From Candidatus Latescibacterota bacterium (GTDB lineage: Bacteria > JAAXHH01 > JACQVL01): a stretch of DNA of 55,834 nucleotides. This document shows, in pieces, positions 2,622-53,751 of this stretch. The notes under the pieces were generated by a model. That model was given only the letters and a program-made list of their open reading frames with translations. It was not told the DNA's origin and searched no databases. Numbering within the stretch: position 1 is the first letter of the stretch; the number at the start of each line of letters is the position of its first letter. Location of the stretch: assembly GCA_016209865.1 (NCBI GenBank), contig JACQVL010000262.1, positions 1-55,834 of the forward strand. The letters are read 5' to 3'. The translations under genes were made by a program, and so were the position numbers.

Positions 2622-2676
2622 AGTGGTCGGTGGTCAGTGGTCGGTTAAATCAGTGACGAGTGACCAGTGACGAGTA
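2622..2676. repeat. Two abutting heptamer arrays (GGTCGGT class + AGTGACG class)
   Basis: GTGGTCG GTGGTCA GTGGTCG GT (2623-2645), then TAAAT, then CAGTGAC GAGTGAC CAGTGAC GAGT (2651-2675). It is the inverted partner of 3817-3877. Confidence 0.9.
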
Positions 2677-2751
2677 AAACAACCTCTTCTGAAGGAATGA
2701 TATACATCCCGCTCCCGAAAATCAAACGAAATCTCATCAGCCGCGTCCGGC

Positions 2752-2780
2752 TTGACAGTCTGCCAACCCGTCTCTATATT
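2752..2780 (+). promoter_or_regulatory. sigma70-like promoter for the 2832 gene / trmB
   Basis: TTGACA (2752-2757), exactly 17 nt of spacer, then TATATT (2775-2780). It lies 52 nt upstream of the GTG at 2832, which has SD GGAGAA at 2818-2823. Confidence 0.5.
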
Positions 2781-2831
2781 GAAATCGCCGTCTTGGTCGT
2801 CCTCTATCCCTTCATGGCCGGAGAATGATCG

Positions 2832-3188
2832 GTGCCCCACGTGATCGTTGATGGACCGTGTTCCGTCGAACAGTATTATACGACATTCCGTCCGACTGGC
2901 TATCAGGATCGAGGGATCGTCTTCAAAACGACGGAGTGTTTTCTTAATTCCAGACGGACGGAAGCGCTAGTCGACAGCGTGGTCGTGGAAGGCGGGCGAC
3001 CTCAGCAGTTCTTCATCTGGCTGATCCAACGGGATGGCGGGGTGATGATCCGGCTGCTCCCGGCCACGGACCCGGAGAAGACGGAGGGGATCAAGCGGCT
3101 GATCGTGCACGTGGCCGCCGCCATTAAGGCTCAGCATCCCGATTGCCGGTACGGAAACACGAACCTGCAAGGGTATGTGAGTGGCTGA
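2832..3188 (+). CDS. Hypothetical protein, 118 aa, no family recognised
   Basis: GTG start with an SD and the promoter above. The composition is protein-like (not R/P/G-rich). The 3' end overlaps the trmB ORF by 8 nt. Confidence 0.6.
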   Translation: MPHVIVDGPCSVEQYYTTFRPTGYQDRGIVFKTTECFLNSRRTEALVDSVVVEGGRPQQFFIWLIQRDGGVMIRLLPATDPEKTEGIKRLIVHVAAAIKAQHPDCRYGNTNLQGYVSG

Positions 3189-3804
3189 CCTGATGATCCA
3201 GATCAGCGCCCTGGACGGTCCGTTCGACTGGGTCGCCCTGTTCGGGAACGCGAGTCCGGTCGAGGTCGAGATCGGGTGCGGGAAGGGCCGGTTCCTGATC
3301 GCCTCCGCCATGCAGTATCCGGACGTGAACTATGTCGGGATCGAGCGAGCCGTCCGGTATTTCCGCATCGTCAAGGAACGGGTCGCCAGACGCGCCCTGA
3401 CGAACGTCCGGCTGCTCTGTGACGATGCCGGGTATTTCGTCCGGAAGTTCATTCCCGATGGGTCGATCGGGGCGTATCACGTCTACTTCCCGGACCCCTG
3501 GCCGAAGAAGCGGCATCGCAAGCGCCGGCTGTTCCAGGGAGACTTTCCCGCCCATCTTGCGCGGACCCTCTGCGCGGAGGGGACGATCGATCTCGCCACG
3601 GATTATGAGGAATATTTCAGCGAGATCGTCAGTCTGCTCGATGCCTGTCCCGGCCTACGTCGCATGTCCGGCCTGCCCGACCGGGTCCGTCTGCTGGGAA
3701 CCGGCGTGACGAACTTTGAGGTTAAGTATACAGCAGAAGGCCGTTTGATCTACCGGGCGGCGTTCCGGAAGACCGATGATGGATTCCCGCTTGCGCAGGA
3801 ATGA
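3181..3804 (+). CDS. trmB: tRNA (guanine46-N7)-methyltransferase
   Basis: 207 aa. Motifs VEIGCGKGRFL (SAM-binding) and YFPDPWPKKRHRKRR are hallmark TrmB motifs. The start is GTG 3181 or ATG 3193. The last 7 codons plus the stop are encoded by a repeat core (see findings). Confidence 0.9.
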   Translation: MADLMIQISALDGPFDWVALFGNASPVEVEIGCGKGRFLIASAMQYPDVNYVGIERAVRYFRIVKERVARRALTNVRLLCDDAGYFVRKFIPDGSIGAYHVYFPDPWPKKRHRKRRLFQGDFPAHLARTLCAEGTIDLATDYEEYFSEIVSLLDACPGLRRMSGLPDRVRLLGTGVTNFEVKYTAEGRLIYRAAFRKTDDGFPLAQE

Positions 3805-3877
3805 CGACCGTTCTTCTCGTCACTCGTCACTGGTCACTCGTCACTGATTCTTACCGACCACCGATCACCGACCACCG
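3781..3877. repeat. Composite element: inverted core hairpin + CGTCACT array + ACCGACC array
   Basis: Core (reverse orientation) GGATTCCCGCTTGCGCAGGAATGAC at 3781-3805. CTCGTCA CTCGTCA CTGGTCA CTCGTCA CTGA at 3817-3847. CCGACCA CCGATCA CCGACCA CCG at 3854-3877. Confidence 0.9.
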
Positions 3878-3881
3878 TACG

Positions 3882-5069
3882 ATGACTCCTCGTATCATCC
3901 TATACTCTGGCAAAGGCGGCGTCGGGAAGACGACGATCGCGGCGGCGACCGGCCTCCGGTGCGCGGACCTCGGCTATCGGACGCTCATCCTGTCGCTCGA
4001 CATCGCCCATAGCCTGGCCGACTCGTTCGACCTCGACGTCGGACTGCACGAGAAGAACCGTGGCCAGCCGGTGGCTGTCGGGGAACGGCTGTGGATCCAG
4101 GAGATCGACGTCCAGGAGGACGTGGAACGGTACTGGGGGGATGTATACAAATACCTCGCCCTCCTGCTCAATACCACCGGCTTAGACGAGATCATCGCCG
4201 CTGAGCTGGCGATCATCCCGGGGATGGAGGACGTTATCTGTCTGCTCTACATCAACCAGTACCTGACCGAACGCACCTACGACGTGCTCATCCTGGACTG
4301 CGCACCGACCGGGGAGTCGTTACGGTTTATCAGCATGCCCTCCACCCTCGAATGGTACATGGATAAACTCTTTCAACTGGAGCGCAACCTGGCCCGTGTG
4401 GTCCGGCCGATCGCGCGGGCGGTCACGAACGTCCCCCTGCCGGACGACAGTTACTTCCAGGCGCTCGCCGGCCTCTTCACGAAGCTCGAAGGGGTGGATA
4501 CGGTCTTGTTAGATAAAGAACGGACGTCTGTCCGGCTGGTGACGAACGCGGAGAAGATGGTGCTGCGGGAGACGCAGCGGGCGTTCATGTATTTCTGCCT
4601 GTACGGGATGGCGGTCGATTCGGTCATCGTCAACCGGCTCATTCCGGCCGGCGAGGGCGGGGAGTATTTCCAGAAGTGGATCACGACGCAGGAGCGCTAC
4701 CTGGCTCAACTCGAACAGTATTTCGATCCCGTGCCGATCGCCCGCGTGCAGATGTTCGATGACGAGATCATCGGGCTGGAGCGACTGCGACGGCTGTCGG
4801 AACAGCTCTACGGGACGGACGACCCGAGCCGGGTGTTCTACAGCGAGCGCCCGTACGAGTTCACGAAGACGGACGGCCAGTACGTGCTCTCCCTCAAACT
4901 CCCGTTTGTCACGAAAGAGCACGTCGATCTGTTCAAGGAAGAAGGCCAGCTCATCATCCGGATCGGCAGTTTCAAACGCCATGTCTTCCTGCCCCGTGCG
5001 GTCAGCCGTCACACCCCACGGGACGCACGGTTCGAGGGAGATCGGTTGTGTATCACGTTTGAACGATGA
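3882..5069 (+). CDS. ArsA/GET3-family P-loop ATPase with a C-terminal HSP20-like (ArsA_HSP20) domain
   Basis: Start trimmed to the ATG at 3882 (MTPRIILYSGKGGVGKTT, a deviant Walker A). The upstream part of the track ORF is translated heptamer repeat. Also has DCAPTGESLRF, and a C-terminal YVLSLKLPFVTKEHVDLFKEEGQLIIRIGSFKRHVFLP beta-sandwich-like segment. Confidence 0.85.
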   Translation: MTPRIILYSGKGGVGKTTIAAATGLRCADLGYRTLILSLDIAHSLADSFDLDVGLHEKNRGQPVAVGERLWIQEIDVQEDVERYWGDVYKYLALLLNTTGLDEIIAAELAIIPGMEDVICLLYINQYLTERTYDVLILDCAPTGESLRFISMPSTLEWYMDKLFQLERNLARVVRPIARAVTNVPLPDDSYFQALAGLFTKLEGVDTVLLDKERTSVRLVTNAEKMVLRETQRAFMYFCLYGMAVDSVIVNRLIPAGEGGEYFQKWITTQERYLAQLEQYFDPVPIARVQMFDDEIIGLERLRRLSEQLYGTDDPSRVFYSERPYEFTKTDGQYVLSLKLPFVTKEHVDLFKEEGQLIIRIGSFKRHVFLPRAVSRHTPRDARFEGDRLCITFER

Positions 5070-5083
5070 AGGAGGTGACGACG

Positions 5084-5353
5084 ATGGCTGAGAAGACCGA
5101 GACCACAACGAAGGAGACCGAACAGGCTGAAACCAGCCAGGAGTCGTGCGAGCGGCTCTTCACCCTCTCACAACTGCGCAAGCTGCTCCCGCCGGACGAG
5201 ACGCTCGTCGAGTTCGAGCGGCACATTATCCGGTCCCAGATCGAACTCCTGAGGGGGGTTCGGACGCTCGTGGACAGCTACGTGTCCCGGCTGGAACGCC
5301 GGGAGAAGCAGGAACAGCCGAAGCGGGTGAGCAAGATCGAGATCAAGGAATAG
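5084..5353 (+). CDS. Hypothetical small acidic / coiled-coil protein, 89 aa
   Basis: ATG at 5084 lies 8 nt after a perfect SD AAGGAGG (5069-5075), which sits on the stop codon of the ArsA-like gene. The track's start at 5066 is less likely. No family recognised. Confidence 0.55.
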   Translation: MAEKTETTTKETEQAETSQESCERLFTLSQLRKLLPPDETLVEFERHIIRSQIELLRGVRTLVDSYVSRLERREKQEQPKRVSKIEIKE

Positions 5354-5360
5354 AGAAAGC

Positions 5361-5423
5361 AAGGACAAAGGACGAAAGGGCCAAAAAGAACTTTTCGTAC
5401 TTCGTCCTTCGCTTTTCGTCCTT
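5361..5423. repeat. Heptamer-arm hairpin (AAGGACG class) between convergent gene ends; possible terminator
   Basis: AAGGACA AAGGACG AAAGG (5361-5379), an 11-nt loop region, then TTTTCGTACTTCGTCCTTCGCTTTTCGTCCTT (5392-5423) followed by ATTT. Confidence 0.8.
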
Positions 5424-5426
5424 ATT

Positions 5427-6398
5427 TCACGTCCGCACGTACTTCTGCAACACGCACCAATCGGCGGGGGCCCGGCCGCCGGGATAGGACACCGCCACCT
5501 CGCCCACGTACAGGTCGCCCCGCGAATCACACGCAATCCCGTGCGGGCTGAAGTATTGGCCTGCGCCCAACGGGTCGTGCTCCCCCCATTCGGCGAGAAC
5601 TTTCCCGGTCGCATCGCGCACCGTGATCCGCGCGGACGGCCGGCTGAGGTCCGGTTCGCCCATAAACACCCCGCCGACCTCGGCGACGTACAGATGTCCT
5701 TCGGCATCGAGGCACACATCGCACGGCCATCGCACGTCGCGCCACAGGACGATCAACTCACCCTGTGGGCTGAAGACCTGGATGCGGCAGTTCTGACGGT
5801 CACACACGTAGACCAGGCTGTGGCTGTCCACGCAGACATCGTGCGGGGTGACGAACTGGCCGGGACGATCGCCGGGCTCTCCCCACGACAGGACGAGCTG
5901 CCCGTCTGGCGTGAACCGGTGAATCCGGGCGTTGCCGTACCCGTCCGACACGTACAGGTCCCCGCCGGGCGCGACCGCCAACGCGGTCGGGTAATTGAAC
6001 GGCGGGCCGGAGCGGATCACCGACTCTGTCGTGGCGCCGTCATAGCCGGTGTCGGACGGATGATCGGCCGTCTGGATCGTCATCAGCAGCCGGCCGTCGG
6101 TCGTGAACTTGTGGACCGCGTGGCCGCAGTCATCCACGCAGTAGACCGCGTCATCAGGACTGATAAACAGGCCGTGCGGTCGTTTGAAGAACCCTTTGCC
6201 CCATGATCCTAAGAATCGACCCTCACGGTCGAAGACGGTCAGCGGATGCTCGCTCCGGCTGAACACATAGACCCGGTCCCGCGAATCTACCCCGACACCT
6301 GCGACCTCCACGAACGTCCAGCCGGCGGGGAGCTCTCCCCATCCTTTCGCTTCTTCGTAGATGAATGCACCCGATCCAACTCTTCGTGTGTGTGGCAT
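5427..6398 (-). CDS. NHL-repeat six-bladed beta-propeller protein (peptidyl-alpha-hydroxyglycine lyase-like)
   Basis: Start trimmed to the ATG at 6398, with SD AGGAG 8 nt upstream. Repeated blades of the form P.G..V...G.LYV.D..N.RI..F...G. Confidence 0.85.
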   Translation of the reverse strand: MPHTRRVGSGAFIYEEAKGWGELPAGWTFVEVAGVGVDSRDRVYVFSRSEHPLTVFDREGRFLGSWGKGFFKRPHGLFISPDDAVYCVDDCGHAVHKFTTDGRLLMTIQTADHPSDTGYDGATTESVIRSGPPFNYPTALAVAPGGDLYVSDGYGNARIHRFTPDGQLVLSWGEPGDRPGQFVTPHDVCVDSHSLVYVCDRQNCRIQVFSPQGELIVLWRDVRWPCDVCLDAEGHLYVAEVGGVFMGEPDLSRPSARITVRDATGKVLAEWGEHDPLGAGQYFSPHGIACDSRGDLYVGEVAVSYPGGRAPADWCVLQKYVRT

Positions 6399-6427
6399 GT
6401 GCGCTCCTGTTGTGCAATTTGGCCTCT

Positions 6428-6775
6428 TTACAACTCGAACCAACGCTGCAAAACGGATTTGAGATGGACGAACGCAGGATCAGTGCAACGTTCAACACTC
6501 TCGTGTTCCAGGTCATCTCGTGATAGGTGATCTTGCCCACACCCTTCACGGTCGCACATCACCAGGGCGTGGGCATATCGGTTGACGAAGGGTCGGAGGA
6601 AATCATGTCCTGCTAACACGCATCCAGGGTCACGAGCGGGATGTATAAAGATGTCATACGTGAATTGACGGATATCAAGCGCTTGGGATCGGGAGAACAA
6701 ACCTTTGACCGCAAACTCCATATTTTTATCGGAGACAAGCACAACGAGATCTTTCTCAAAGTCGTCGTCTTTCAT
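6428..6775 (-). CDS. Hypothetical 115-aa protein, partner of the upstream ATPase (unknown family)
   Basis: Its ATG overlaps the ATPase stop codon (ATGA at 6772-6775). Low-GC codon usage like the ATPase. Acidic motifs VVLVSDKNME, HPARDPG and VMCDREG. No HNH motif or clear Toprim E..DxD that I can recognise. Confidence 0.6.
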   Translation of the reverse strand: MKDDDFEKDLVVLVSDKNMEFAVKGLFSRSQALDIRQFTYDIFIHPARDPGCVLAGHDFLRPFVNRYAHALVMCDREGCGQDHLSRDDLEHESVERCTDPAFVHLKSVLQRWFEL

Positions 6776-7974
6776 CCCAAGACGCCCCCGGCAAAAAGCA
6801 CTCCCAAATTTGTCTCGCCGCGCCAGTCCTTGAGGGCTGGGTGTTCACTCCCTACCACGATGTCTGTCGCTCCATCCAGGGTTTTTGCGAAGCACAACAC
6901 CTGATTCGCCTCAGCCACACTCAGAATCACTGGAGAATGAGTGGCTAAGAGGATTTGTGCATGATAGACAGATGAGAGAGACTGAAACATCGTTTCCACG
7001 GCTCGTGGATGAATGCCGTTCTCGGGCTCTTCGATGAGGTAGACACCCTGAAAATCTGACAAATAGGCTGGGAGTGTCAATGCCAGGAGACGGAGGGTCC
7101 CATCTGAGACGACCCAGGAGGGAATCTCCCATCCTCCTTGATACCGGATGACCAGATACCGGTGTCGATCATCCGGTCGCTCGATCGTTCGGATATCTTC
7201 GATGTCAGGAAGAGCAGTCTGCACATGTGCGATCCACTCACGAAAGCGATCAGGAGCCTTTTTCTGGAGATTATCCAACACCCACGGTAGGTTGGAACCA
7301 TCCGGTCTGAATCCTCGCCCCTGTCCCGGTGGGCTGGCTTTCCGGATGAGCGCGCTATTCAGGACGAACTGTTGTACCCCTTCGGTCAGCAGTCCTTTTA
7401 ACCAGGTGGTGACTGGAAACTTAGACTCATCTTCGGGGAGGTTGCCCAGTGCAGATTTACGAGGACCGAGTTTGAACGCGGATGCCCAGCCCTTGCCTGG
7501 GAGGTGATACGCTTCAGAATAGTAGTTATCATTGCCGCCGGGAACCTTATGGACAACCGTGCGTAGTCCCCTGGCATTTTTGCGAGTCAGGATGGTATTC
7601 ACCTGATCGATTGGCATAGGAAACATGACACGTTGGATAGGGGACTGTGATTTCGCTCTCTTGAGCAAAGCTTTTTCAGCGAGAATACTGATCTCATCCG
7701 TTCCAGGAGCGAGTCCGATAGCGACTTCGTAGCGAATCGTATCATAGTGATGTTCTGTTAACAGCTTCCGACGATCCTCAGGGATCTGCGCTTCGATCGC
7801 AAGTTCAAACTTCCGTCCTGCCCGTTTCCAGACCAGATCTTGGAAATTGTGAGTCCGTTCACTCACTGCAACTTCAAGCCCATCGGATACTAACCTCCCA
7901 AGAAACGCCACGACATCCAAGAACGTCGTCTTCCCGCTGGCGTTGGGCCCCACAAGGACATGAAACGGTTCCAA
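6772..7974 (-). CDS. SMC/ABC-like AAA_21-type ATPase. The uninterrupted ORF is given here; the true 5' end is probably at 8030 with a 1-nt frameshift.
   Basis: Walker A GPNASGKTT, signature-like SDGTLRLLAL, Walker B VYLIEEPENGIHP and H-loop LLATHSP. The track start is a TTG. An ATG at 8028-8030 with SD GGAAGGGA opens MIAQIETLNFR.. in another frame (see finding). Confidence 0.85.
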   Translation of the reverse strand: MEPFHVLVGPNASGKTTFLDVVAFLGRLVSDGLEVAVSERTHNFQDLVWKRAGRKFELAIEAQIPEDRRKLLTEHHYDTIRYEVAIGLAPGTDEISILAEKALLKRAKSQSPIQRVMFPMPIDQVNTILTRKNARGLRTVVHKVPGGNDNYYSEAYHLPGKGWASAFKLGPRKSALGNLPEDESKFPVTTWLKGLLTEGVQQFVLNSALIRKASPPGQGRGFRPDGSNLPWVLDNLQKKAPDRFREWIAHVQTALPDIEDIRTIERPDDRHRYLVIRYQGGWEIPSWVVSDGTLRLLALTLPAYLSDFQGVYLIEEPENGIHPRAVETMFQSLSSVYHAQILLATHSPVILSVAEANQVLCFAKTLDGATDIVVGSEHPALKDWRGETNLGVLFAGGVLG

Positions 7975-8133
7975 AGGCTGGCGAATATAGTGAAAACACG
8001 GAAGTTCAACGTTTCAATCTGCGCAATCATGGTTCATTCCCTTCCTTCGGACAATATCCATGAATTCCATAAGCCACAGGTTCCAATTCATCAGTTTCCT
8101 CTCTGGAATCCAAGTCATCTGACTGCTGTCACG

Positions 8134-9105: not shown

Positions 9106-9142
9106 GAAACCTCCTCCCTCCTCTCCCTTCCCCACCGGGCAG

Positions 9143-9240
9143 GTGGGCAATGGGCAGTGGGCAATCGAAGCCGTTCCCTCGTCTACTGCCCATCTGCCTG
9201 GCGGGGTCGGGTGGCTGTGCGGGGACTGCCTACTGCCCGG
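9143..9240. repeat. Heptamer-arm element (GGGCAGT / ACTGCCC class)
   Basis: Left arm GTGGGCA ATGGGCA GTGGGCA AT (9143-9165). Inverted arms ACTGCCCATCTGCC (9185-9198) and ACTGCCTACTGCCC (9225-9238). Intergenic. Confidence 0.8.
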
Positions 9241-10461: not shown

Positions 10462-10478
10462 ACGGGACTCCTTCAGAA

Positions 10479-10517
10479 AGGACGAAGGATAAAGGGCGAA
10501 GGACGAACGAGAAGGAA
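10479..10517. repeat. Single-arm heptamer array (AAGGACG class)
   Basis: AAGGACG AAGGATA AAGGGCG AAGGACG AACGAGA. On the minus-strand mRNA it reads as a CGTCCTT array that ends 17 nt before the start codon at 10461. Confidence 0.8.
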
Positions 10518-21886: not shown

Positions 21887-21902
21887 GGGGACTCCTTTGG
21901 TT

Positions 21903-24679
<2,777 letters not shown>

Positions 24680-27506: not shown

Positions 27507-27525
27507 ACGGCCTGCTCCCTCAAGT

Positions 27526-27553
27526 AATCGGTGGTCGGTGGTCGGTAGTCGGT
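27526..27553. repeat. Single-arm heptamer array (GGTCGGT class)
   Basis: AATCGGT GGTCGGT GGTCGGT AGTCGGT. It lies 20 nt upstream of the secDF start on the other strand, so it falls in the probable secDF 5'UTR. Confidence 0.85.
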
Positions 27554-27571
27554 AAAGACCGCAATAACATG

Positions 27572-36579: not shown

Positions 36580-36590
36580 GGGGAAGAAAT

Positions 36591-36805
36591 CCGGGGTACG
36601 GGGTTCGGGATTCGGGGAGAAAACATCGGGATACGGGGTACGGGATACGGGGTACGGGAAAGCATACAGAAGGACACCCACAAGGGGTAGCCTTATACTC
36701 ATGCTGTCATTCCCGCGCAAGCGGGAATCCATTTCCCGGACCCCGAATCCCGTACCCCGTCTTGTCTCTTTTCCCGGACCCCGTACCCCGAATCCCGTAC
36801 CCCGG
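36591..36805. repeat. Largest composite heptamer-arm element (CGGGGTA / TACCCCG class) with a central core hairpin
   Basis: Left arms at 36591-36662 (CGGGGTA CGGGGTT CGGGATT ... CGGGATA CGGGGTA x2). Core GTCATTCCCGCGCAAGCGGGAATCC at 36706-36730. Right arms at 36735-36805 (CCCGGAC CCCGAAT CCCGTAC ...). Followed by GGGTTTTTCTC. Confidence 0.9.
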
Positions 36806-36812
36806 GTTTTTC

Positions 36813-37550
36813 TCATCCAACCTGATCGAGGATCGCCCGGAGATCGCGCCGCACGCACGTGAAGATCGGGGTGTCCCGCAGCGTATACCGGCTGCCCTCG
36901 GTCTCCCGCAGCTCCATGACGAGGTCGAGGAAATCATCCGGCTTGTCCGTCTCGAACGCGACGACGAACTCCTGGTCGTCCAGGCCGAACGAGTACGTCG
37001 TGTTGAGCTTGACGGAGGCGTACCGGTGGCCGACCTCGATGTGCTCGTTCATCATCCCCTGGCGGGTGGCTTTCGACAGCCGGTACCAGTCCCGCGTCTT
37101 GACGAACGGGTAGACGAACAGGTACTTGGCCTCTCCGGGGATGATGTGCAGCCGGGTGCCTTCCTGGCCTTCGTGGTGGTGTCTGTCCACGTAGATCGAT
37201 CGTTTCGTCATCGACAGGAGTGAGTACGGGGTGTCCAGGTATTTCCCCAGGCCGGTCCGGAGGAGCTGCGCGGTCATCTCCTGGAACGACTCGATCTCGT
37301 ACCCGATCCGCCAGAGCATGAAATCGGTGTCGGCGCGGAGTCCGACCGTCGAGTACGGCAGGACGATCATCTGCGGGAGAAACTGCTCGACCACGCCCGC
37401 GAATTCCCGCTTCCCCTCGTCCTGCTCGGACGCGGGCAGCCGGCGCCAGGCGGAATCGGCCTTGTAGAACGCGAAATTGACGTACTGCCGCCGCGCCGGC
37501 TCAGCCGGTTCCGTCCCCCGGCCTCGGCCAGATCGTTCATGGCTACTCAT
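36813..37550 (-). CDS. Chlorite-dismutase-family protein (HemQ/ChdC-like)
   Basis: 245 aa. Overall pattern YVNFAFYK....W..L, FLYPFVK..DWY and a C-terminal ferredoxin-like repeat, typical of the Cld/HemQ family. Confidence 0.85.
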   Translation of the reverse strand: MSSHERSGRGRGTEPAEPARRQYVNFAFYKADSAWRRLPASEQDEGKREFAGVVEQFLPQMIVLPYSTVGLRADTDFMLWRIGYEIESFQEMTAQLLRTGLGKYLDTPYSLLSMTKRSIYVDRHHHEGQEGTRLHIIPGEAKYLFVYPFVKTRDWYRLSKATRQGMMNEHIEVGHRYASVKLNTTYSFGLDDQEFVVAFETDKPDDFLDLVMELRETEGSRYTLRDTPIFTCVRRDLRAILDQVG

Positions 37551-38787: not shown

Positions 38788-38806
38788 GATGTCCTCCTTG
38801 ATAAAG

Positions 38807-38905
38807 CAAGGATGAAGGGGTAAGGACGAAGGACGAACAGTAAGGATTCATGAAACGTGTCATTCCCACGCAAGCGGGAATCCATCGCTTTGGCCTTCGT
38901 CCTTG
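38807..38905. repeat. Composite heptamer-arm element (AAGGACG class) with core hairpin
   Basis: Left arm CAAGGAT GAAGGGG TAAGGAC GAAGGAC (38807-38847). Core GTCATTCCCACGCAAGCGGGAATCC (38859-38883). Short right arm CCTTCGTCCTTG (38894-38905). Confidence 0.9.
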
Positions 38906-38979: not shown

Positions 38980-39008
38980 TTGACAGAAAGCCGATATTTT
39001 TTTATGAT
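38980..39008 (+). promoter_or_regulatory. Strong sigma70-like promoter reading into the next repeat element and the 39215 gene
   Basis: TTGACA (38980-38985), exactly 17 nt, then TATGAT (39003-39008), in an AT-rich context. Confidence 0.55.
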
Positions 39009-39041: not shown

Positions 39042-39192
39042 AAGGGACGAAGTCGTTCAGAAGTAAGGACGAAGGAGTAAGGACGAAGGACGAAATTGAA
39101 AGGATGAAAGACAACTCTCTTGTTTCTGTCATTCCCGCGCAAGCGGGAATCCATCATCTTTTTCGTCCTTTGTCCTTCATACTTCGTCCTTG
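39042..39192. repeat. Composite heptamer-arm element (AAGGACG class) with core hairpin, located in a 5'UTR
   Basis: Left arm 39042-39110 (TAAGGAC GAAGGAG TAAGGAC GAAGGAC ...). Core GTCATTCCCGCGCAAGCGGGAATCC at 39128-39152. Right arm CTTTTTCGTCCTTTGTCCTTCATACTTCGTCCTTG at 39158-39192. Confidence 0.9.
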
Positions 39193-39214: not shown

Positions 39215-39643
39215 ATGAAGACGCGCGCGCTCGTCGTGGGCCTGATGGGGGTCTGCCTCCTCTGCTCCGGACTCATCGGGTGTTTCTCGTTTTTTCAATC
39301 GACGCCCATAGACCCGTTGGCCCTTCAGGTGAAACAGGAGCAGGCGGACGTCAAACGCCTGCAGACGTCTGCCGACAGTCTGGCTGCCAACCGGAGGCGG
39401 GTGTGGGAGGATATCCAGACGCTGAAAGTGCTACAGACGCTGACGCCCGACCAGATCGCGGCGTTGCCCGGGATGGAAGGGAAAGAAAACCTGATGACGT
39501 CTGCGAGTGCCTCAGATACGAGTCGGCAGTCGTCGTCAGCCATGCAGGCCGAGAAGAAGGGCATCGTCGGCAGCATTACGGGCAGTATTACCGGGTTCTT
39601 CGGGAAGATCGGGAACGGACTGAAGAAGCTCTGGCCGTTTTAA
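39215..39643 (+). CDS. Hypothetical lipoprotein, 142 aa
   Basis: Start trimmed to the ATG at 39215 (SD AGGGGAGAGG). Lipobox LCSGLIGC. Coiled-coil middle region and a GSITGSITG tail. The upstream part of the track ORF is translated repeat. Confidence 0.65.
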   Translation: MKTRALVVGLMGVCLLCSGLIGCFSFFQSTPIDPLALQVKQEQADVKRLQTSADSLAANRRRVWEDIQTLKVLQTLTPDQIAALPGMEGKENLMTSASASDTSRQSSSAMQAEKKGIVGSITGSITGFFGKIGNGLKKLWPF

Positions 39644-39647
39644 GGCA

Positions 39648-39663
39648 GTGATCGGTGGTCGGT
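39648..39663. repeat. Short heptamer array (GGTCGGT class)
   Basis: GTGATCG GTGGTCG GT, immediately after the stop codon at 39641-39643. Confidence 0.7.
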
Positions 39664-39690
39664 TAAAAACCAGACGATTCTCTAAACCAA

Positions 39691-39732
39691 AACAGCATGG
39701 CAAGCCTTCACCCGCCATGCTGTTTGTGTTTT
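39691..39732. terminator. Bidirectional rho-independent terminator between convergent genes
   Basis: 11-bp stem AACAGCATGGC (39691-39701) / GCCATGCTGTT (39714-39724) with a 12-nt loop. Followed by TGTGTTTT on the plus strand and by TTTTGGTTT on the minus strand. Confidence 0.75.
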
Positions 39733-39736
39733 ACCC

Positions 39737-39751
39737 GTCACTCGTCACTGA
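39737..39751. repeat. Short heptamer array (CGTCACT class) overlapping the rplQ stop codon
   Basis: GTCACTC GTCACTG A. The rplQ stop TGA is the rc of 39745-39747. Confidence 0.7.
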
Positions 39752-40179
39752 TTTGACTCGCTCTTCTCCCCGGTGCTGTCTGCGGCCTTCTTCCCCTTGC
39801 TCTCGGATTCTTCAGACGCGGCCGCCCGGTCGACCAGCTCCAAGATCGACAACTCCGCCGCATCCCCCTGCCGGTGGCCGACGTGGATGATCCGGGTATA
39901 CCCGCCGTTCCGGTCACGGTACCGGGGCGCGATGGAGGTGAACAGCTTGGACACGACGGCTCGATTCTGCACGACCCGGAGCACCTGTCGCCGCGCATGG
40001 AGGTCGTCTCGTTTGGCGAACGTGATCAGCCGTTCGACGACGCTCCGGGCTTCTTTCGCTTTGGCCGTCGTCGTTTCCACCCGTTCCCGGTCGAGGACCG
40101 ACGTGGCTAAGTTGGCCAGCATCGCCCGGCGGTGACCGACCGTCCGGCCGAGTTTCCGCCCCTGTTTTCGGTGTCGCAT
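39745..40179 (-). CDS. rplQ: 50S ribosomal protein L17
   Basis: [24 protein letters not shown].. is the canonical L17 N-terminus. Has a Ser/Glu-rich C-terminal tail. Confidence 0.97.
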
Positions 40180-41889: not shown

Positions 41890-41905
41890 AGAGACTCCTA
41901 AGTAA

Positions 41906-41998
41906 TAAGGACGAAGGATGAAGGACGAAAAGGACAAACTGCCGTTACTTTGTTTCGCCCTTTCTTGTTCGTCCTTCGTACTTTGTACTTCGTCCTTG
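41906..41998. repeat. Heptamer-arm palindrome (AAGGACG class), no core, in the rpsK-rpsD spacer
   Basis: Left arm TAAGGAC GAAGGAT GAAGGAC GAAAAGGACAAA (41906-41938). Right arm GTTCGTCCTTCGTACTTTGTACTTCGTCCTTG (41967-41998). Confidence 0.9.
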
Positions 41999-42003
41999 CT
42001 CTT

Positions 42004-44054: not shown

Positions 44055-44069
44055 GTCTGGCCATCCTCA

Positions 44070-44146
44070 TAAGGACGAAGGATGAAGGTCGAAAAGAACA
44101 TTCTGTCTTATACTTTTCGTCCTTCGTCCTTACCCCTTCGTCCTTG
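44070..44146. repeat. Heptamer-arm palindrome (AAGGACG class) in the adk-map spacer, overlapping the adk 3' end
   Basis: Left arm TAAGGAC GAAGGAT GAAGGTC GAAAAG (44070-44096) is 28/30 identical to the left arm at 41906. Right arm CTTTTCGTCCTTCGTCCTTACCCCTTCGTCCTTG (44113-44146). Confidence 0.9.
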
Positions 44147-44792
44147 CCGTTCCTGGAAGGCTGGCGAGAATCCGTTCTTCGACGACCTGCGGGGACGCAT
44201 TCCCGTCGATACTCCGCAACAACCCGTCGACACGGTAGAACTCTTTCAGCGGCGCGATCTCTCGCAGGTACACGTCGAGCCGGTGCATGACCGTCACGGC
44301 GTCATCATCCAGACGATGCGTCAGACCGCTCCCGCACACGTTACAGACCCCCTGGACGCGCGGCTGATCCGTCTTCTCGTTGTAGTTCCGGTGACACGAC
44401 GGACAGATGAGCCGGTGGGACAGCCGCTCGATGATGACGTCCCGTTCGACCTCGATACTCACGACCGCCTCGATCGGGGTCTGGAGTCGCTCCAGCAGGG
44501 TGTTCAGGTACGACGCCTGGCTGAGCGTCCGCGGAAACCCGTCGAGGATGAACCCGTTCGCGCAATCCGGCTCGCGGAGTCGCTCCTCCAGCACCCGGAT
44601 CATGATGGGATCAGGGACGAGCTCCCCGGCTTCCATGTACGCTTTCGCCTGCAGGCCCACCAGGGTCCCGCGCTGGATGGCGGAACGGAGCAGATCGCCC
44701 GTTGAAATATGCGGGATCTGCAACTGTTCACCGAGCATCCGGGCTTGTGTTCCCTTACCCGCTCCCGGGGCGCCGACCAGAATCAATCGCAT
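44130..44792 (-). CDS. adk: Adenylate kinase (with a Zn-type lid)
   Basis: Start trimmed to the ATG at 44792 (MRLILVGAPGAGKGTQ). Lid sequence CPSCHRNYN...C..CG. Confidence 0.96.
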   Translation of the reverse strand: MRLILVGAPGAGKGTQARMLGEQLQIPHISTGDLLRSAIQRGTLVGLQAKAYMEAGELVPDPIMIRVLEERLREPDCANGFILDGFPRTLSQASYLNTLLERLQTPIEAVVSIEVERDVIIERLSHRLICPSCHRNYNEKTDQPRVQGVCNVCGSGLTHRLDDDAVTVMHRLDVYLREIAPLKEFYRVDGLLRSIDGNASPQVVEERILASLPGTARTKG

Positions 44793-47790: not shown

Positions 47791-47807
47791 CTCTCTGACT
47801 CCACATA

Positions 47808-47826
47808 CTGACCACCGACCACCGCC
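47808..47826. repeat. Short heptamer array (ACCGACC class) in the rplF-rplR spacer
   Basis: CTGACCACCGACCACCGCC. Confidence 0.7.
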
Positions 47827-48363
47827 TTACACCCCCGTCTTCCCGGCCTTCCGACGAACCTGCTCCCCTTCGTACCGAATCCCTTTGCCTTTATACGGCT
47901 CCGGCTTCTTGAACGACCGGATGATGGCCGCGATCTGGCCGACTAACTGTTTGTCGATCCCCGACACCACGATCCGCGTCTGGTTGATGACCTCGACCTG
48001 AATACCCGGCGGGGTCTGAAGGATGATCGGATGGGAGAAGCCCAGCGCCAGCGTCAGGTTGGGCCCCTGGGCTTCGGCACGGTAGCCGACTCCCTGGATT
48101 TCGAGCACCTTGCTGAACCCGGCCGTGACGCCCTGGATCATGTTGGCGATGAGCGACCGCGTCAGCCCGTGCAGGGACCGCCCGAACTTGGTCTCAGACC
48201 CACGTTCGATGACGACGCTCCCGTCGTCGAGACGGGCGGTGATGGTCGGATGGACGGGGCACGACAACTCCCCTTTCGGGCCGTGGACCGTCACCATCTG
48301 ACCGTCGATCGCGACCGTCACCCCGGCCGGGATGGCGATTGGCCGTTTTCCGATTCTGGACAC
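47827..48363 (-). CDS. rplF: 50S ribosomal protein L6
   Basis: 178 aa. MSRIGKRPIAIPAGV.V......V.V.GPKG.L... Confidence 0.98.
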   Translation of the reverse strand: MSRIGKRPIAIPAGVTVAIDGQMVTVHGPKGELSCPVHPTITARLDDGSVVIERGSETKFGRSLHGLTRSLIANMIQGVTAGFSKVLEIQGVGYRAEAQGPNLTLALGFSHPIILQTPPGIQVEVINQTRIVVSGIDKQLVGQIAAIIRSFKKPEPYKGKGIRYEGEQVRRKAGKTGV

Positions 48364-48375
48364 GATGCCCCTCCC

Positions 48376-48774: not shown

Positions 48775-48819
48775 CAGTCTTCCCCCTTCGGACGGGACGC
48801 CCTGGGTGCTCGTCTGTCC

Positions 48820-49005: not shown

Positions 49006-49044
49006 ACATCCCCCTCTCGTCACCGGACGTCCCTGTCGGCGCTC

Positions 49045-49596: not shown

Positions 49597-49600
49597 CCCT

Positions 49601-49918: not shown

Positions 49919-49933
49919 ACGCAGAGTCCTCTT

Positions 49934-50302: not shown

Positions 50303-50321
50303 CGCGACCAACCTTCTCTGT

Positions 50322-50830: not shown

Positions 50831-51272
50831 CCGGCTCTCCCTTCCGGCCGGCGGCCTGTGTGAGTTCTTCCCGGACGATGAACCGGGTCTTAATGGGCAG
50901 CTTGTGCGAGGCCAGCCGCATCGCTTCCCGCGCCACCTCGACCGGCACCCCCTTCATCTCGAACAGAATCCGGCCCGGTTTGACCACCGCCACCCAGTAC
51001 TCCGGGTTGCCTTTGCCCTTTCCCATTCGGGTCTCCGCCGGTTTGATGGTCACCGGCTTGTCCGGGAAGACCCGGATCCACATTTTCCCACCCCGCTTGA
51101 CATGGTGGATCATCGCCACACGCGCCGCCTCGATCTGCCGGTTGGTCAGCCAGCCCGGGTCGAGCGCCTGTATGCCGACATCGCCGAACTCCAGGGTCGC
51201 CCCACGGTCCGCCTTCCCAGTCATCCGGCCGCGCTGTTGTTTCCGGTGTTTCACCCGCTTCGGCATCAACAT
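50817..51272 (-). CDS. rplP: 50S ribosomal protein L16
   Basis: 151 aa. [25 protein letters not shown]. Confidence 0.98.
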
Positions 51273-51305
51273 CGGACGTCGTCTCCCACTCCGTTACTGC
51301 ATCCC

Positions 51306-52001
51306 TCAATTCCTGCGCGCTCGCCCGGTCGCCCGTGTCTCAGGCTCACGCGGCGCCTGCCCCGTGGGCTGTTCCCCCACCAACACATCCCCCTTGCAGA
51401 TCCACACCTTCACCCCGACACACCCGTAGGTGGTATGCGCCGTCGATCTCGCAAAGTCGATATCGGCACGCAGCGTATGCAGCGGCACGCGGCCATCATG
51501 AAAACTCTCCGTCCGGGCCATCTCCGCCCCGCCCAGCCGGCCCCCGCACGTGATCTTAATCCCTTCAGCTCCCATCCGCATCGCGGCCGTGATCGCCTTC
51601 TTCATCGCCCGCCGGAAACTGACCCGCTGCTCCAATTGCCGGGCGACACTCTCCCCGACTATCTGGGCATCCAACTCCGGCCGGCGAATCTCCTGAATGT
51701 TGATGTACACATCCTTCTGGGTGAGATGCTGCAACTCATCCCGGAGTTTATCGACCTCGGCGCCCTTGCGTCCGATCACGATGCCCGGCCGTGCGGTATG
51801 AATCCCGATGGTGACTTTCTTGGGGGCCCGTTCGATCTCCACCCTGGCGATCCCGGCGCGCGACAGACGGCTCTTCACGTACCGGCGGATCATCAGGTCT
51901 TCCTGGATGAGCCCCGCCATGTTTTTATCTGCATACCAATTTGACTGCCAGGTCTTGATGACGCCCAGTCGAAACCCGATCGGATGCGTTTTTTGTCCCA
52001 C
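51306..52001 (-). CDS. rpsC: 30S ribosomal protein S3
   Basis: 231 aa. [13 protein letters not shown]....W.S.WYA.... Confidence 0.98.
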
Positions 52002-52040
52002 CCTGCACTCTCCTGTCTGGCCGACGCCCGGTCCGCGCGC

Positions 52041-52388
52041 TTACACGGCCGTCTCCGAGACGACAACGGTGATGTGGCTGGTCCGCTTCCTGAGCCGGGA
52101 GGCCATGCCGCGCGGCCCGTAATAGATGCGTTTCTGCATCGGCCCCCCGTCGACGTAGATCGTCTTGATGCGTAAACTCTCGACGTCGACGTTGGCGCTC
52201 CCATCCGCGTTGATCGCGTTCGCCGCGGCCGAGCGGACGGTCTTCTCCAACGGACGGGCCGCCGCCTTCGGCACGAACTGCAGGATGTTCAGCGCCTCCT
52301 GCACCGTCTTGCCACGGATGAGTTCGACGACCTGACGCAACTTGCGGGCAGAGCCGGGAACCTGTCGCGCCACTGCACGGGCTTCCAT
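52041..52388 (-). CDS. rplV: 50S ribosomal protein L22
   Basis: 115 aa. MEARAVAR.V..SARKLR.VV.LIRGK.V.EAL.IL.F..K.AA. Confidence 0.97.
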   Translation of the reverse strand: MEARAVARQVPGSARKLRQVVELIRGKTVQEALNILQFVPKAAARPLEKTVRSAAANAINADGSANVDVESLRIKTIYVDGGPMQKRIYYGPRGMASRLRKRTSHITVVVSETAV

Positions 52389-52404
52389 GGGTGAAACTCC
52401 TTCT

Positions 52405-52692
52405 TCATTTTAACACCGTCGTTCGCTCCGTGATCCGTCCACTATGCCCGCGGAACGTCCGGGTCGGGGCAAACTCCCCCAACTTATGGCCGACCATGTT
52501 CTCCGAGATGTACACCGGCATGAATTTATTCCCGTTATGGATGGCGAGCGTGTGGCCGACAAACTCCGGGGTGATCGTACAATCCCGCGCCCAGGTCCGG
52601 ATCACCCGCTTCTCCCCCGTCCGGTTCATCTCTTCGATCTTCCGGAGCACGCTCGGGTCCACATACGGCCCCTTCTTGATCGACCGAGCCAT
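52405..52692 (-). CDS. rpsS: 30S ribosomal protein S19
   Basis: Start trimmed to the ATG at 52692 ([12 protein letters not shown]). The upstream part of the track ORF is translated heptamer repeat. Confidence 0.97.
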
Positions 52693-52708
52693 ACAGACCT
52701 CCTCAAGG

Positions 52709-52806
52709 CAGTGACAGGTGACGAGTGACAAGTGACGAATAAGAGCCAAGAAAACCTGTCTGTTCAGAATGTTTTTTCTCGTCACTCGTCACTTACAACT
52801 CGTCAC
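52709..52806. repeat. Heptamer-arm palindrome (AGTGACG / CGTCACT class) in the rplB-rpsS spacer
   Basis: Left arm CAGTGAC AGGTGAC GAGTGAC AAGTGAC GA (52709-52738). Right arm CTCGTCACTCGTCACTTACAACTCGTCAC (52778-52806). Confidence 0.9.
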
Positions 52807-52814
52807 GGCTCTTC

Positions 52815-53636
52815 TCACTTCCGTTTCTTCACGATCAACGTGTTCGGCTTCTTCTTCCGTCGCGTCTTAAACCCTTTGGCAAGCTGGCCCCACGGGCTGC
52901 ACGGATGCCGCCCGCCGGAACTCTTCCCCTCGCCCCCACCCATCGGATGGTCGACCGGGTTCTTCGCCACCCCACGCGAATACGGCCGTTTGCCGAGCCA
53001 CCGGGACCGCCCCGCCTTCCCGATGGAGATGTTCTCGTGCTCCACATTCCCGACCTGGCCGACCGTCGCGGAACAGAGTAACGGAACTCGCCGGATTTCT
53101 CCGGAAGGCAGACGGAGGTGCGCGAACTCCCCTTCCTTCGCCATCAACTGGGCGACAGACCCGGCAGACCGCACGATCTGTCCCCCCCTGCCGGGAGACA
53201 ACTCGATGTTATGCACCATCGTCCCTAACGGGAGCTTCCCCAGCGGGAGATGGTTCCCGTCCCGGATGTCCGCCATCTCCCCGGACATCACCGTCGCGCC
53301 CACGGTGAGGCCCACCGGAGCCAGGATGTACCGCTTCTCGCCGTCGGCGTAATAGAGCAACGCGATGCGGGCAGACCGGTTCGGGTCGTACTCGATCGTT
53401 TTGACGCGCGCCGGGATTCCGATTTTCTCCCGCTTGAAATCGATCATCCGGTACAGCCGTTTATGGCCGTTGCCCCGGTGCCGGCTGGTCATCCGGCCCA
53501 GGTTGTTCCGGCCTCCACTGCTCTTGAATGACTGGAGCAATGAGGGCTCCGGTTTCGTCGCGGTCACTTCCTCAAACGTCGAGACCGTCTTGAACCGCTG
53601 TGACGGCGTGAGGGGTCGAAACGCTCGAACTGGCAT
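52815..53636 (-). CDS. rplB: 50S ribosomal protein L2
   Basis: Start trimmed to the ATG at 53636 (SD GAGGAA). [15 protein letters not shown].. and a C-terminal [18 protein letters not shown]. Confidence 0.98.
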
Positions 53637-53654
53637 GGTGAGATTCCTCAACAA

Positions 53655-53751
53655 CAGTGACGAGTGGCCAATGACGAGTGACGAGAAAGAGCAAAAATGA
53701 GTGAGAACATGGAGGTATGATGTTTACTTGTCACTCGTCACTTGTCACTGA
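53655..53751. repeat. Heptamer-arm palindrome (AGTGACG / CGTCACT class) in the rplW-rplB spacer
   Basis: Left arm CAGTGAC GAGTGGC CAATGAC GAGTGAC GAG (53655-53685). Right arm CTTGTCACTCGTCACTTGTCACTGA (53727-53751). Confidence 0.9.

Follow-up and report, generated by a model that had tools for sequence, protein, structure and literature searches.

Six classes of tandem heptanucleotide arrays, often paired as class-matched inverted arms, occupy the intergenic spacers of a Candidatus Latescibacterota contig

Tandem arrays of heptanucleotides have been on record for cyanobacteria since 1990, and work of 2007-2015 showed them to be over-represented more generally, in scattered bacteria. Their historical prototype is the family of short tandemly repeated repetitive (STRR) sequences of heterocystous cyanobacteria, reportedly described by Mazel et al. 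in 1990, whose units are CCCCAGT, TTGGTCA and CAACAGT (STRR1-3) and which are not defined by inverted arms of matching class. Here we analyse arrays of this general kind, dispersed over a stretch of 55,834 nucleotides of a Candidatus Latescibacterota bacterium (GenBank assembly GCA_016209865.1, contig JACQVL010000262.1, positions 1 to 55,834 of the forward strand), hereafter called the window. An earlier note, drawn up from the letters of the stretch, had described its intergenic repeats as elements built from tandem 7-mers with inverted arms of matching class.

Several comparable systems have been described. Rehm et al. (2015) reported arrays of GGGAATC from Xanthomonas and of GGGGA(C/T)T from Nostoc (PMC4692102). 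Each Xanthomonas genome carries 70-75 convergent inverted GGGAATC pairs, and all three genomes of that study follow a gene-end strand rule, in which the G-rich sequence lies on the coding strand within about 50 nt after stop codons and on the non-coding strand within about 50 nt before start codons, with arrays sometimes overlapping the stops (PMC4692102). The sites are kept between species while length and sequence vary, the study reports neither a connection with mobile elements or gene function nor a role, and formation of G-quadruplexes (G4) by GGGAATC repeats was shown in vitro (PMC4692102). As cited in the same paper, the STRR of Calothrix PCC 7601 comprise three heptanucleotides. In marine Beggiatoaceae, some cyanobacteria and Bacteroidetes, MacGregor (2015) described TAACTGA direct repeats, arrays of 2-6 copies placed a few nt upstream of start codons, ribosomal-protein operons included, where ribosome-binding sites are often non-canonical (PMC4679880). 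According to the summary given there, Mrazek et al. (2007) found heptanucleotides to be the most abundant class among long repeats of simple sequence (LSSR) across many scattered bacteria and suggested polymerase slippage as their origin. Geobacter metallireducens carries GGGACCG in four tandem copies at 49 sites and MTYCTGA in five, annotated as putative regulatory elements (PMC2700814).

Arrays in the window were detected with Tandem Repeats Finder (TRF) and an independent scan of periods 3-12, and were counted after curation at period 7 and a length of at least 18 nt. The whole window holds 32 such arrays, 923 nt in total, in six unit classes at 16 intergenic sites, and each of the two methods gave strong period-7 arrays at every coordinate in the earlier note. 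These are head-to-tail 7-nt units of the broad LSSR/STRR-like kind, with period 7 in clear excess: the period scan gave 16 strong runs at period 7 against 0-2 at each other period from 3 to 12, and 16-19 against 0-2 in the comparison with periods 5, 8, 10 and 11. Period-7 density reaches 34 per 100 kb. In the ribosomal-protein loci of the closest genomes available (1.29 Mb) it is 2.4 per 100 kb, and periods other than 7 that are not divisible by three give about 1-1.6 per 100 kb. Written on the G-rich strand, the units are AAGGACG (class A; reverse complement CGTCCTT), AGTGACG (B; CGTCACT), GGTCGGT (C; ACCGACC), GGGGTCA (D; TGACCCC), CGGGGTA (E; TACCCCG) and GGGCAGT (F; ACTGCCC), each with three or four G and exactly one C. 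In classes A, B and C, to which 23 of the 32 arrays belong, G-runs do not exceed 2 nt; G3-G4 tracts that would permit a G-quadruplex by sequence occur in classes D, E and F only. The STRR1-3 units form no two-unit array in the window, in any rotation or on either strand, and GGGAATC, TAACTGA and GGGGAYT are likewise not found there as arrays.

The location of the arrays is dispersed and mostly non-coding. Intergenic DNA makes up 8.5% of the window, and all 32 arrays lie within it or overlap the last codons of three genes (ligA, adk and rplQ). They occupy 12 of the 15 spacers of at least 100 nt and 14 of the 18 of at least 75 nt. Six of the sites fall within the S10-spc-alpha operon (rplW/rplB, rplB/rpsS, rplF/rplR, adk/map, rpsK/rpsD and downstream of rplQ). 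We conclude that the arrays are real and far beyond chance expectation.

Neighbouring arms are class-matched and inverted, as the earlier note had proposed. Taking arrays no more than 300 nt apart as neighbours, 11 of 17 pairs are same-class and inverted, a number reached in none of 100,000 permutations of class and orientation labels. The 11 paired elements are strongly structured relative to dinucleotide shuffles (RNA minimum free energy -26 to -142 kcal/mol, z -2.7 to -10.2; z -2.9 to -6.5 with DNA fold parameters), and four single-arm sites, at 2620, 3814, 10475 and 27524, do not fold (z -1.3 to +0.9). The description of the elements as hairpins thus holds for the paired ones and fails at 2623/2651 and 3817/3854, which are composite single-strand arrays of layout [GGTCGGT]n[AGTGACG]n, lying 1.1 kb apart in inverted orientation. 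The sites at 38807 and 39042, correctly listed as arrays, are each in fact a complete hairpin whose right arm (38888-38905 and 39161-39191, respectively) had been missed.

How the arms of an element come to match is a separate question. The earlier note held that stem potential is maintained within each element while the units differ between elements. Duplex energies were computed for all left-arm by right-arm combinations inside class A and inside class B, and within-element duplexes proved no better than cross-element duplexes of the same class. For instance, the left arm of E38807 (elements are named by E and a window coordinate) pairs at -68.5 kcal/mol with the right arm of E44070 versus -27.0 with its own partner, and that of E53655 at -62.5 with the arm at 3814 versus -38.6 with its own partner. 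Since arms from other loci pair equally well or better, we rejected element-specific compensatory covariation. The match is family-level, as in inverted doublets of the REPIN type (hairpin-forming doublets of repetitive extragenic palindromic, REP, sequences).

Arms are also shared between loci. Cross-locus arms match at 95-100%, including the order of variant units and short non-repeat flanks such as AAATC...GAGTAAA, which bears out the view that copying adds to local slippage. One arm, GC-AAGGAYG-AAGGGGT-AAGGACG-AAGGACG-AAMAGTA, occurs at 38806 and, as reverse complement, at 44147; another, AAATC-[AGTGACN]3-AGTAAA, occurs at 2647 and, as reverse complement, at 3849, 39754 and 53754. The left arm of the hairpin at 38807-38905 is 95% complementary to the right arm of that at 44069-44145, and E44070 is chimeric, with one arm like E41906 and the other like E38807. 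The identity of 28 out of 30 positions between 41906-41935 and 44070-44099 was confirmed, and the perfect match between 2650-2675 and 3822-3847 holds, in inverted orientation, and extends to 28 nt (2648-2675 / 3822-3849). From family-level pairing together with these cross-locus matches, we conclude that each element consists of two inverted copies of one repeat family and that arms are copied or exchanged between loci.

Folding shows no consistent preference for one strand: of 8 transcribed elements, 3 fold better as the sense strand and 5 as the antisense strand, giving no evidence of strand selection at the RNA level. This absence of a sense-strand advantage fits DNA palindromes that are merely tolerated in RNA. 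Intrinsic termination was considered and rejected, as a consensus scan flags no element and the stems, read directly from the sequences, lack a following U-tract. A scan of the whole window on both strands against Rfam 15 at gathering thresholds gave no match, and a tRNA/tmRNA scan of the window found none. The longest direct repeat in the flanks averages 3.8 nt compared with 4.0 nt at random positions, so that no target-site duplication stands out. Apart from a core discussed below, present in four paired elements, and a weak AACATTCT motif in three elements, the loops are unrelated between copies. The latter, an A-rich AACATTCT / AGAATGTT motif, lies in the window at 44094-44113 and 52741-52774 and at 3752-3795 of L081, a contig of a related organism; the loops of E5361 and E53655 hold weaker, GAAC-containing versions of it.

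A conserved core had been placed by the earlier note at the centre of the elements. A 25-nt core, GTCATTCCCGCGCAAGCGGGAATCC, does occur in six copies with at most 3 mismatches and gives no match in shuffles; all six copies are intergenic and contain the dRS3 palindrome ATTCY-N10-RGAAT. Five of them match the 28-nt consensus CGTCATTCCCGCGMAVGCGGGAATCYRG of the Neisseria Transformation Sequence (NTS) with 2-3 mismatches (0 in 100 shuffles), the match including an oriented 5' flank, GTCA. The NTS, or Ssn-related, motif contains dRS3 and is a single-stranded DNA (ssDNA) target of the GIY-YIG nuclease SsnA (PMC11893778), and the same Neisseria sequence has also been treated as a REPIN (bioRxiv 10.1101/2021.07.10.451892). 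On the minus strand, CGTCATTCCTGCGCAAGCGGGAATCCAT at 3779-3806 has 2 mismatches to the 28-nt consensus and contains the trmB stop codon. An NTS-like core, GTCATTCCCACGCAAGTGGGAATCC, lies on the plus strand at 21957-21981 in the loop of a class D hairpin, with an inverted partner at 22006-22033 on the minus strand. Three further plus-strand copies lie in the loops of a class E hairpin (36705-36732) and of the class A hairpins 38807-38905 and 39062-39191 (38858-38885 and 39127-39154, respectively).

Only 4 of the 11 paired elements carry this core in the loop. The exact core is present in at least 120 contigs from Joint Genome Institute (JGI) metagenomes, with GC contents of 41-66%. In 120 of these contigs a period-7 run lies within 120 nt of 5 of 129 cores, and an array-core-array layout occurs in none, so that a general association of NTS with heptamers was rejected. 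Because it is so rarely near heptamers elsewhere, we conclude that the core is an independent, known repeat that shares scarce intergenic space with the heptamers and is not their organising centre. The copies in the window resemble the NTS / Ssn-related motif in consensus, dRS3 palindrome and intergenic position, and differ from it in being nested in the loops of heptamer hairpins, a layout not described in PMC11893778. The motif here sits in a lineage far from Neisseria.

The hairpins have a polarity. In all 10 local same-class hairpins the G-rich arm comes first, on the 5' side, and the C-rich arm follows on the 3' side (binomial p = 0.002); since a palindrome reads alike on both strands, it is meaningful to ask which arm is the G-rich one. 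Of the arrays lying up to 40 nt upstream of a start codon, 14/15 show their C-rich strand in the mRNA sense, and of those adjacent to a stop codon, 11/12 show the G-rich strand. Ahead of start codons, arms stop just short of the ribosome-binding site, at a distance of 1-39 nt from the codon; next to the upstream stop they begin no more than 25 nt away or overlap it. Both features reported by Rehm et al., convergent same-unit pairs and the gene-end strand rule, are therefore found in the window. In the ribosomal-protein operon, 5 of 6 arrays are complete hairpins, and single arms are found mostly in promoter-proximal leaders. Outside the window we found 32 same-unit inverted neighbour pairs, in which the G-rich arm is 5' in 26 of the 31 that are not tied (p = 2e-4); by source, the polarity holds in 17 of 18 pairs from IMG/VR loci and in 9 of 13 non-tied pairs from other loci.

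Contigs from public short-read assemblies provided relatives at graded distances. At 99.9-100% nucleotide identity (L236, L237 and L234, from SRR12113390) the arrays are unchanged, E53655 being exact in L236 and the rplF-rplR array exact in L237. At 99.8% over 3.6 kb (L238, SRR12113401) the sole indel is one extra 7-nt unit in the rplF-rplR array. Unit variants in the rplB-rpsS 3' arm stand in a different order at 97.5% nucleotide identity (L235, SRR22387819). At 95.2% over 3.5 kb (L233, SRR22388051) the array of class C next to the PHP gene has more, and different, units, and the class B module has been exchanged for about 38 unrelated nt between near-identical flanks. Unit number is thus polymorphic in L238, and unit order or number is changed in L235 and L233. 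More distant contigs (L081-L084, from SRR22387835, SRR22387919 and SRR22388058) share 74-89% protein identity with the window, L081 and L084 being at 88-89%. The adk-map spacer measures 7-18 nt and lacks an element in L081-L083, versus 81 nt with a hairpin in the window; the rplW-rplB spacer measures 24 nt without an element in L084, versus 123 nt with a hairpin. A class A hairpin is present in the rpsK-rpsD spacer of L081 and a class B hairpin in the rplB-rpsS spacer of L084, each with units and loop that differ from those of the window, and L081 has a class D-like array before rpmJ, where the window has none.

The comparison of orthologous intergenic regions, which the earlier note had suggested as a check, thus revealed both unit-number polymorphism and presence or absence of elements, over a range from 99.8% nucleotide identity to 88-89% protein identity. 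We conclude that the relatives show unit slippage, module turnover, gain or loss of whole elements and long persistence of a class at some sites, and that turnover of the elements far outpaces that of the flanking genes. In close relatives, short-read unitigs break at arms: position 1 of L235 lies inside an arm and position 1730 of L236 at the end of one. Assemblies of this lineage are broken up by the heptamer repeats, which metagenome-assembled genomes (MAGs) will under-represent.

Two composite single-arm arrays lie near the left end of the window. The array at 2620-2677, [GTGGTCG]x3 - TAAATC - [AGTGACG]x3.4, lies 10 nt upstream of the start of a minus-strand PHP gene, is C-rich in the mRNA sense and has no local fold (z -1.3). 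Its inverted partner, 1.1 kb away at 3814-3880, reads [CTCGTCA]x4.3 - CTGATTCTT - [ACCGACC]x3.6, has no fold either (z +0.9) and ends 1 nt before an ArsA-like ATG at 3882, the ArsA domain beginning at residue 31 of this long open reading frame (ORF). Both composite arrays therefore end 1-10 nt before the start codon of an outward-facing gene. Between them lies an orphan ORF of 118 aa (2832-3188), co-transcribed with trmB; it belongs to no Pfam family, its sole homologue among 5.8 billion proteins is in L233, and it offers no clue to an associated enzyme. Further right, the ArsA-like gene and an NHL gene converge on a class A hairpin at 5360-5423, which lies 3 nt away from the stop codon of the NHL gene (RNA fold -26.1 kcal/mol, z -4.8; DNA z -3.6). 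A low-GC island follows at 6000-8130 (54% versus about 62%), free of heptamer arrays and encoding an AAA_21 / AbiEii-like ATPase (6772-7974) and a small ORF without a family (6428-6775); it may be an acquired defence-type module. A class F element at 9137-9239, between the stop of a Cys/Met-PLP gene and the start of a 2-hydroxyacid dehydrogenase gene, has one G-rich arm (9142-9167) and two C-rich arms (9185-9200 and 9224-9239) and folds at -48.3 kcal/mol (z -4.1). A class A single arm without a fold, pyrimidine-rich in the mRNA sense, is found at 10475-10511, 13 nt upstream of the start of a Cys/Met-PLP gene.

The class D hairpin at 21898-22086 (-87.7 kcal/mol, z -6.1), between ligA and an ADI/DDAH-like gene, holds the two inverted NTS cores in its loop. 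Its right arm (22050-22086), in which 22053-22084 is made of 4.6 perfect GGGGTCA units, is translated as the last 10 codons of LigA. A class C (GGTCGGT) single arm without a fold lies at 27524-27554, 21 nt upstream of the secDF start. The most stable element is a nested double hairpin of class E at 36589-36805 (-142.2 kcal/mol, z -10.2), between convergent VWA and chlorite-dismutase-family (Cld-like) genes, with outer arms at 36589-36617 / 36772-36805, inner arms at 36626-36661 / 36734-36762 and one NTS core in the loop. The Cld-like gene that adjoins this largest hairpin lies at 36813-37550 (Pfam E = 3e-58). Two class A hairpins, each with an NTS core in its loop, lie in divergent leaders: that at 38807-38905, with a short right arm (38888-38905), in the 5' leader of a minus-strand aminotransferase gene (-33.7 kcal/mol, z -4.3), and that at 39062-39191, with its right arm at 39161-39191, in the 5' leader of a plus-strand lipoprotein gene whose ATG is at 39215 (-69.1 kcal/mol, z -8.9). 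They stand one on each side of a near-consensus sigma-70-type promoter-like site, TTGACA-17-TATGAT, at 38980-39008, upstream of the lipoprotein gene.

A hybrid pair at 39646-39752 lies between the lipoprotein gene and rplQ. Its class C arm occupies 39646-39665, and its class B arm, at 39731-39752, overlaps the stop codon of rplQ. The two arms enclose an ordinary terminator-like hairpin (39684-39718), rich in GC and with A/T runs on its flanks, which contributes most of the fold (-46.3 kcal/mol). Within the ribosomal-protein operon, class A hairpins lie between rpsK and rpsD (41904-42001; -35.8 kcal/mol, z -5.5) and between adk and map (44069-44145; -31.2 kcal/mol, z -4.1), a class C single arm between rplF and rplR (47806-47827), and class B hairpins between rplB and rpsS (52710-52800; -40.5 kcal/mol, z -3.8) and between rplW and rplB (53653-53750; -27.2 kcal/mol, z -2.7). 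The 5' arm of the element at 44069-44145 provides the final adk codons and the TAA stop, the C-terminus of Adk reading ARTKG* with its stop within the class A array. Repeats supply the 3' ends of four genes: ligA (22050-22086), adk (44130-44145), rplQ (39745-39752), whose stop is inside a class B arm, and trmB (3802-3804), whose stop is inside an NTS core. The C-terminal tails of these genes would change with gain or loss of units.

The host is not a cyanobacterium, in agreement with the earlier note. With one genome per GTDB species, the best RpoA matches are 73% identical and belong to Latescibacterota, Gemmatimonadota and unclassified MAGs; the best match of ribosomal protein L2 outside its own clade is 78% identical, from Zixibacteria. 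The host is an uncultured bacterium resembling the Fibrobacterota-Chlorobiota-Bacteroidota (FCB) group. Period-7 arrays are absent from the ribosomal-protein loci of the three closest genomes (RpoA 70-73% identical), and the trait is therefore lineage-specific. Among the scanned ORFs of the window we found no transposase, no Y1 (HUH) transposase of the REP-associated tyrosine transposase (RAYT) type and no ssnA-like GIY-YIG (cd10448) gene.

Heptamer arrays also occur in other contigs and in phages. In the core-bearing metagenome contigs the density of period-7 arrays reaches 7.8 per 100 kb, several of these contigs being multi-class. Exact three-unit arrays are found in IMG/VR for AGTGACG (22 contigs) and AAGGACG (4 contigs), and this 241 kb of sequence holds 138 period-7 arrays (57 per 100 kb). 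L222 and L224, among the densest of these contigs, encode phage terminase or capsid proteins, and Mu-like protease genes were also confirmed. Six of the IMG/VR contigs (L212, L214, L218, L222, L224 and L229) carry 8-16 multi-class arrays per 10-15 kb, often as inverted pairs with the G-rich arm first, and units held in common with the window are AGTGACG, CGGGATA and GGCAGT-like sequences. A search for the hosts of the heptamer-rich IMG/VR contigs was uninformative, the best phage matches being at most 35% identical. Overall, AGTGACG, AAGGACG and CGGGATA-like units recur in unrelated contigs with GC contents of 36-70%. Occasional arrays, some of them inverted pairs, were also seen in ribosomal-protein loci of Zixibacteria, Planctomycetia and Omnitrophota (L018 5436-5545, L039 7297-7359, L046 9239-9312 and L077 11607-11660), and low-density occurrence thus extends well beyond the taxa of the literature.

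We consider it fairly probable that the arrays are STRR-like, non-coding heptamer families that colonise intergenic spacers as selfish or neutral repeats, subject to a selective filter. Arrays would grow by replication slippage and could spread by recombination, gene conversion or template switching between dispersed arrays or, alternatively, by mobilisation of the hairpin doublet through an enzyme not encoded in the window. Selection would only filter the survivors, the spacers being transcribed and many of them lying inside operons. An insertion that folds back would again place the upstream stop near the downstream ribosome-binding site and would hide the C-rich, Rho-loadable arm, and Shine-Dalgarno-like G-rich repeats (AAGGA, GGTGA, GGGG) would be excluded just upstream of starts. 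Such a filter would account for the hairpins found in operons and for the unpaired C-rich arms of promoter-proximal leaders, and likewise for the strand rule, by which arrays are G-rich after stops and C-rich before starts. For the cell, the consequences are probably passive or slightly modulatory, for instance through intercistronic or leader stem-loops that affect mRNA stability or processing, and the elements are probably not a dedicated regulatory system. Several points weigh against this interpretation. All of its functional statements are inferred, and it assigns no mechanism to the side-by-side placement of two same-family copies in inverted orientation. That one class stays at a given operon spacer over about 11% protein divergence could reflect positive selection for function, and a dedicated function at the RNA level would yield the same strand rule. 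An associated enzyme (RAYT, SsnA or another) may lie outside the 56 kb seen.

Another reading takes the hairpins as selected cis-acting RNA elements, intercistronic or leader stem-loops acting in differential mRNA stability, RNase III processing, translational coupling or Rho protection, with heptamers as only their mode of construction; we regard it as unlikely. The positions of the arms relative to starts (1-39 nt) and stops (within 25 nt or overlapping), the stable folds (z -2.7 to -10), the class A and B hairpins kept at rpsK-rpsD and rplB-rpsS at 88-89% protein identity, and the predominance of complete hairpins in the ribosomal-protein operon (5/6), with single arms mostly in promoter-proximal leaders, are all consistent with it. 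However, the sense strand is the better folder in three elements and the worse in five, no element-specific compensatory change is seen, sequence and unit number already change at 95-99.8% identity, the adk-map and rplW-rplB elements are absent from close relatives with spacers of 7-24 nt, and the stems have neither U-tracts nor an Rfam match. If the arrays were instead multimeric binding sites for sequence-specific DNA- or RNA-binding proteins, one factor per class, as has been proposed for TAACTGA in Beggiatoaceae, their abutting of start codons would be expected; at least one gene preceded by repeats, the ArsA-like gene (ATG 3882), has no obvious Shine-Dalgarno sequence, as MacGregor reports for that system (PMC4679880), and AGTGACG, AAGGACG and CGGGATA-like units recur in unrelated contigs (GC 36-70%). 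Yet with six classes in 56 kb, and many further ones in other contigs rich in heptamers, a large number of factors would be required; the units are degenerate, the flanking genes share no common function, the window offers no candidate binding protein linked to the arrays, and class-matched inverted arms point to pairing and not to sequence read-out. We therefore hold this explanation to be very unlikely.

Mobility offers two further explanations. The heptamer doublets could form a distinct, widespread class of non-autonomous hairpins, actively generated or mobilised as ssDNA by a host or phage-borne activity that works in 7-nt steps and imposes the G-rich-5'/C-rich-3' polarity. This would explain the same architecture and units across GC contents of 36-70%, the high density in phage genomes, the conserved non-repeat arm ends and the exchange of arms between loci; nothing in the window identifies an ssDNA hairpin-mobilising activity, and we think this reading rather unlikely. 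Classical MITEs (miniature transposable elements with inverted repeats), with heptamer-built terminal inverted repeats and a transposase encoded elsewhere in the genome, would likewise be dispersed, have inverted arms, come and go between relatives and leave near-identical arms with conserved short flanks at several loci. We rate them as highly improbable, because target-site duplications do not exceed chance (3.8 versus 4.0 nt), the loops are not conserved, chimeric elements have arms that match different loci, single arms are common and the window encodes no transposase. G-quadruplex or i-motif elements, by analogy with what has been proposed for the Xanthomonas and Nostoc repeats, might apply to classes D, E and F, which have at least four G3-G4 tracts per arm (for example at 22053-22084), and GGGAATC repeats do form G4 in vitro (PMC4692102); with 23 of the 32 arrays (classes A, B and C) lacking any G-run longer than two, and the complementary arm in pairs competing with G4 folding, the chance that this explains the elements appears remote. 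An origin as assembly artefacts, from collapsed or chimeric repeats, would be in keeping with the breaks of unitigs at arrays (L236 ends at an arm end, L235 starts inside an arm) and is negligible in likelihood: the elements are shorter than about 230 nt and flanked by unique coding sequence, assemblies of other runs reproduce E53655 (L236) and the rplF-rplR array (L237) exactly, homologous elements stand at orthologous sites in L081, L084 and L233, and our check of independent assemblies found no artefact.

Taken together, the earlier interpretation stands in that the elements are more than slippage, have class-matched arms, follow an STRR-like design and belong to a non-cyanobacterium, and gives way on the maintenance of stems within elements and on the conserved core, which is an independent repeat. 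With an uncultured organism the functional question is not directly addressable from this case, and its value is as comparative material. It adds a very dense heptamer case with several classes, from an uncultured lineage remote from the hosts recorded so far. It also gives evidence that arms act as interchangeable modules of a family and not as co-evolving stems, and its graded set of relatives (99.8% to about 88%) lets slippage of units be told apart from replacement of modules and from gain or loss of whole elements. The polarity and the gene-end rule of Xanthomonas hold here and in unrelated metagenomic and phage contigs, which argues that the rule is general.

The likeness to the STRR of heterocystous cyanobacteria is one of broad design, several heptamer units being tandemly amplified and dispersed in the non-coding DNA of one genome. 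Strict membership fails, since the STRR units are absent and the host is not a heterocystous cyanobacterium; the class-matched inverted arms are a further difference. The Geobacter metallireducens elements are also families of short heptamer arrays dispersed in one genome, but these do not vary from 4 or 5 copies, some of them lie within genes and the units are different. TAACTGA repeats share the placement of heptamer arrays just before starts, ribosomal-protein operons included, and differ in having a single unit that is nearly always direct, with one inverted case reported. With REP and REPIN (bioRxiv 10.1101/2021.07.10.451892) the elements share extragenic inverted doublets with variable spacers, hairpin formation, family-level complementarity and the occurrence of singlets. 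The window elements are thus inverted doublets in the REPIN sense whose units are not palindromic, as single arms do not fold; in addition, the arms are 7-nt periodic, several families coexist and unit number varies. REP and REPIN are associated with RAYT, whereas no RAYT gene is found among the scanned ORFs of the 56-kb window.

The Xanthomonas and Nostoc repeats share G-rich 7-nt units, intergenic bias, convergent pairs, the gene-end strand rule with occasional overlap of stops, sites that are kept while length and sequence vary, and the lack of a tie to gene function or mobile elements. The hairpin organisation, which the earlier note took for a departure from the STRR repeats, is already described for Xanthomonas, with its 70-75 convergent pairs per genome (PMC4692102). 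The differences are that those genomes have essentially one unit class each, compared with six classes in 56 kb here, that the window is much denser, that three of its classes, with no G-run above two, would not be expected to form G-quadruplexes, that its arms carry conserved short flanks and are exchanged between loci, and that its host is FCB-like. We conclude that hairpin organisation and strand rule were known before, that neither a new mechanism nor a new kind of system is demonstrated, and that the case is new in its density and in its number of classes.

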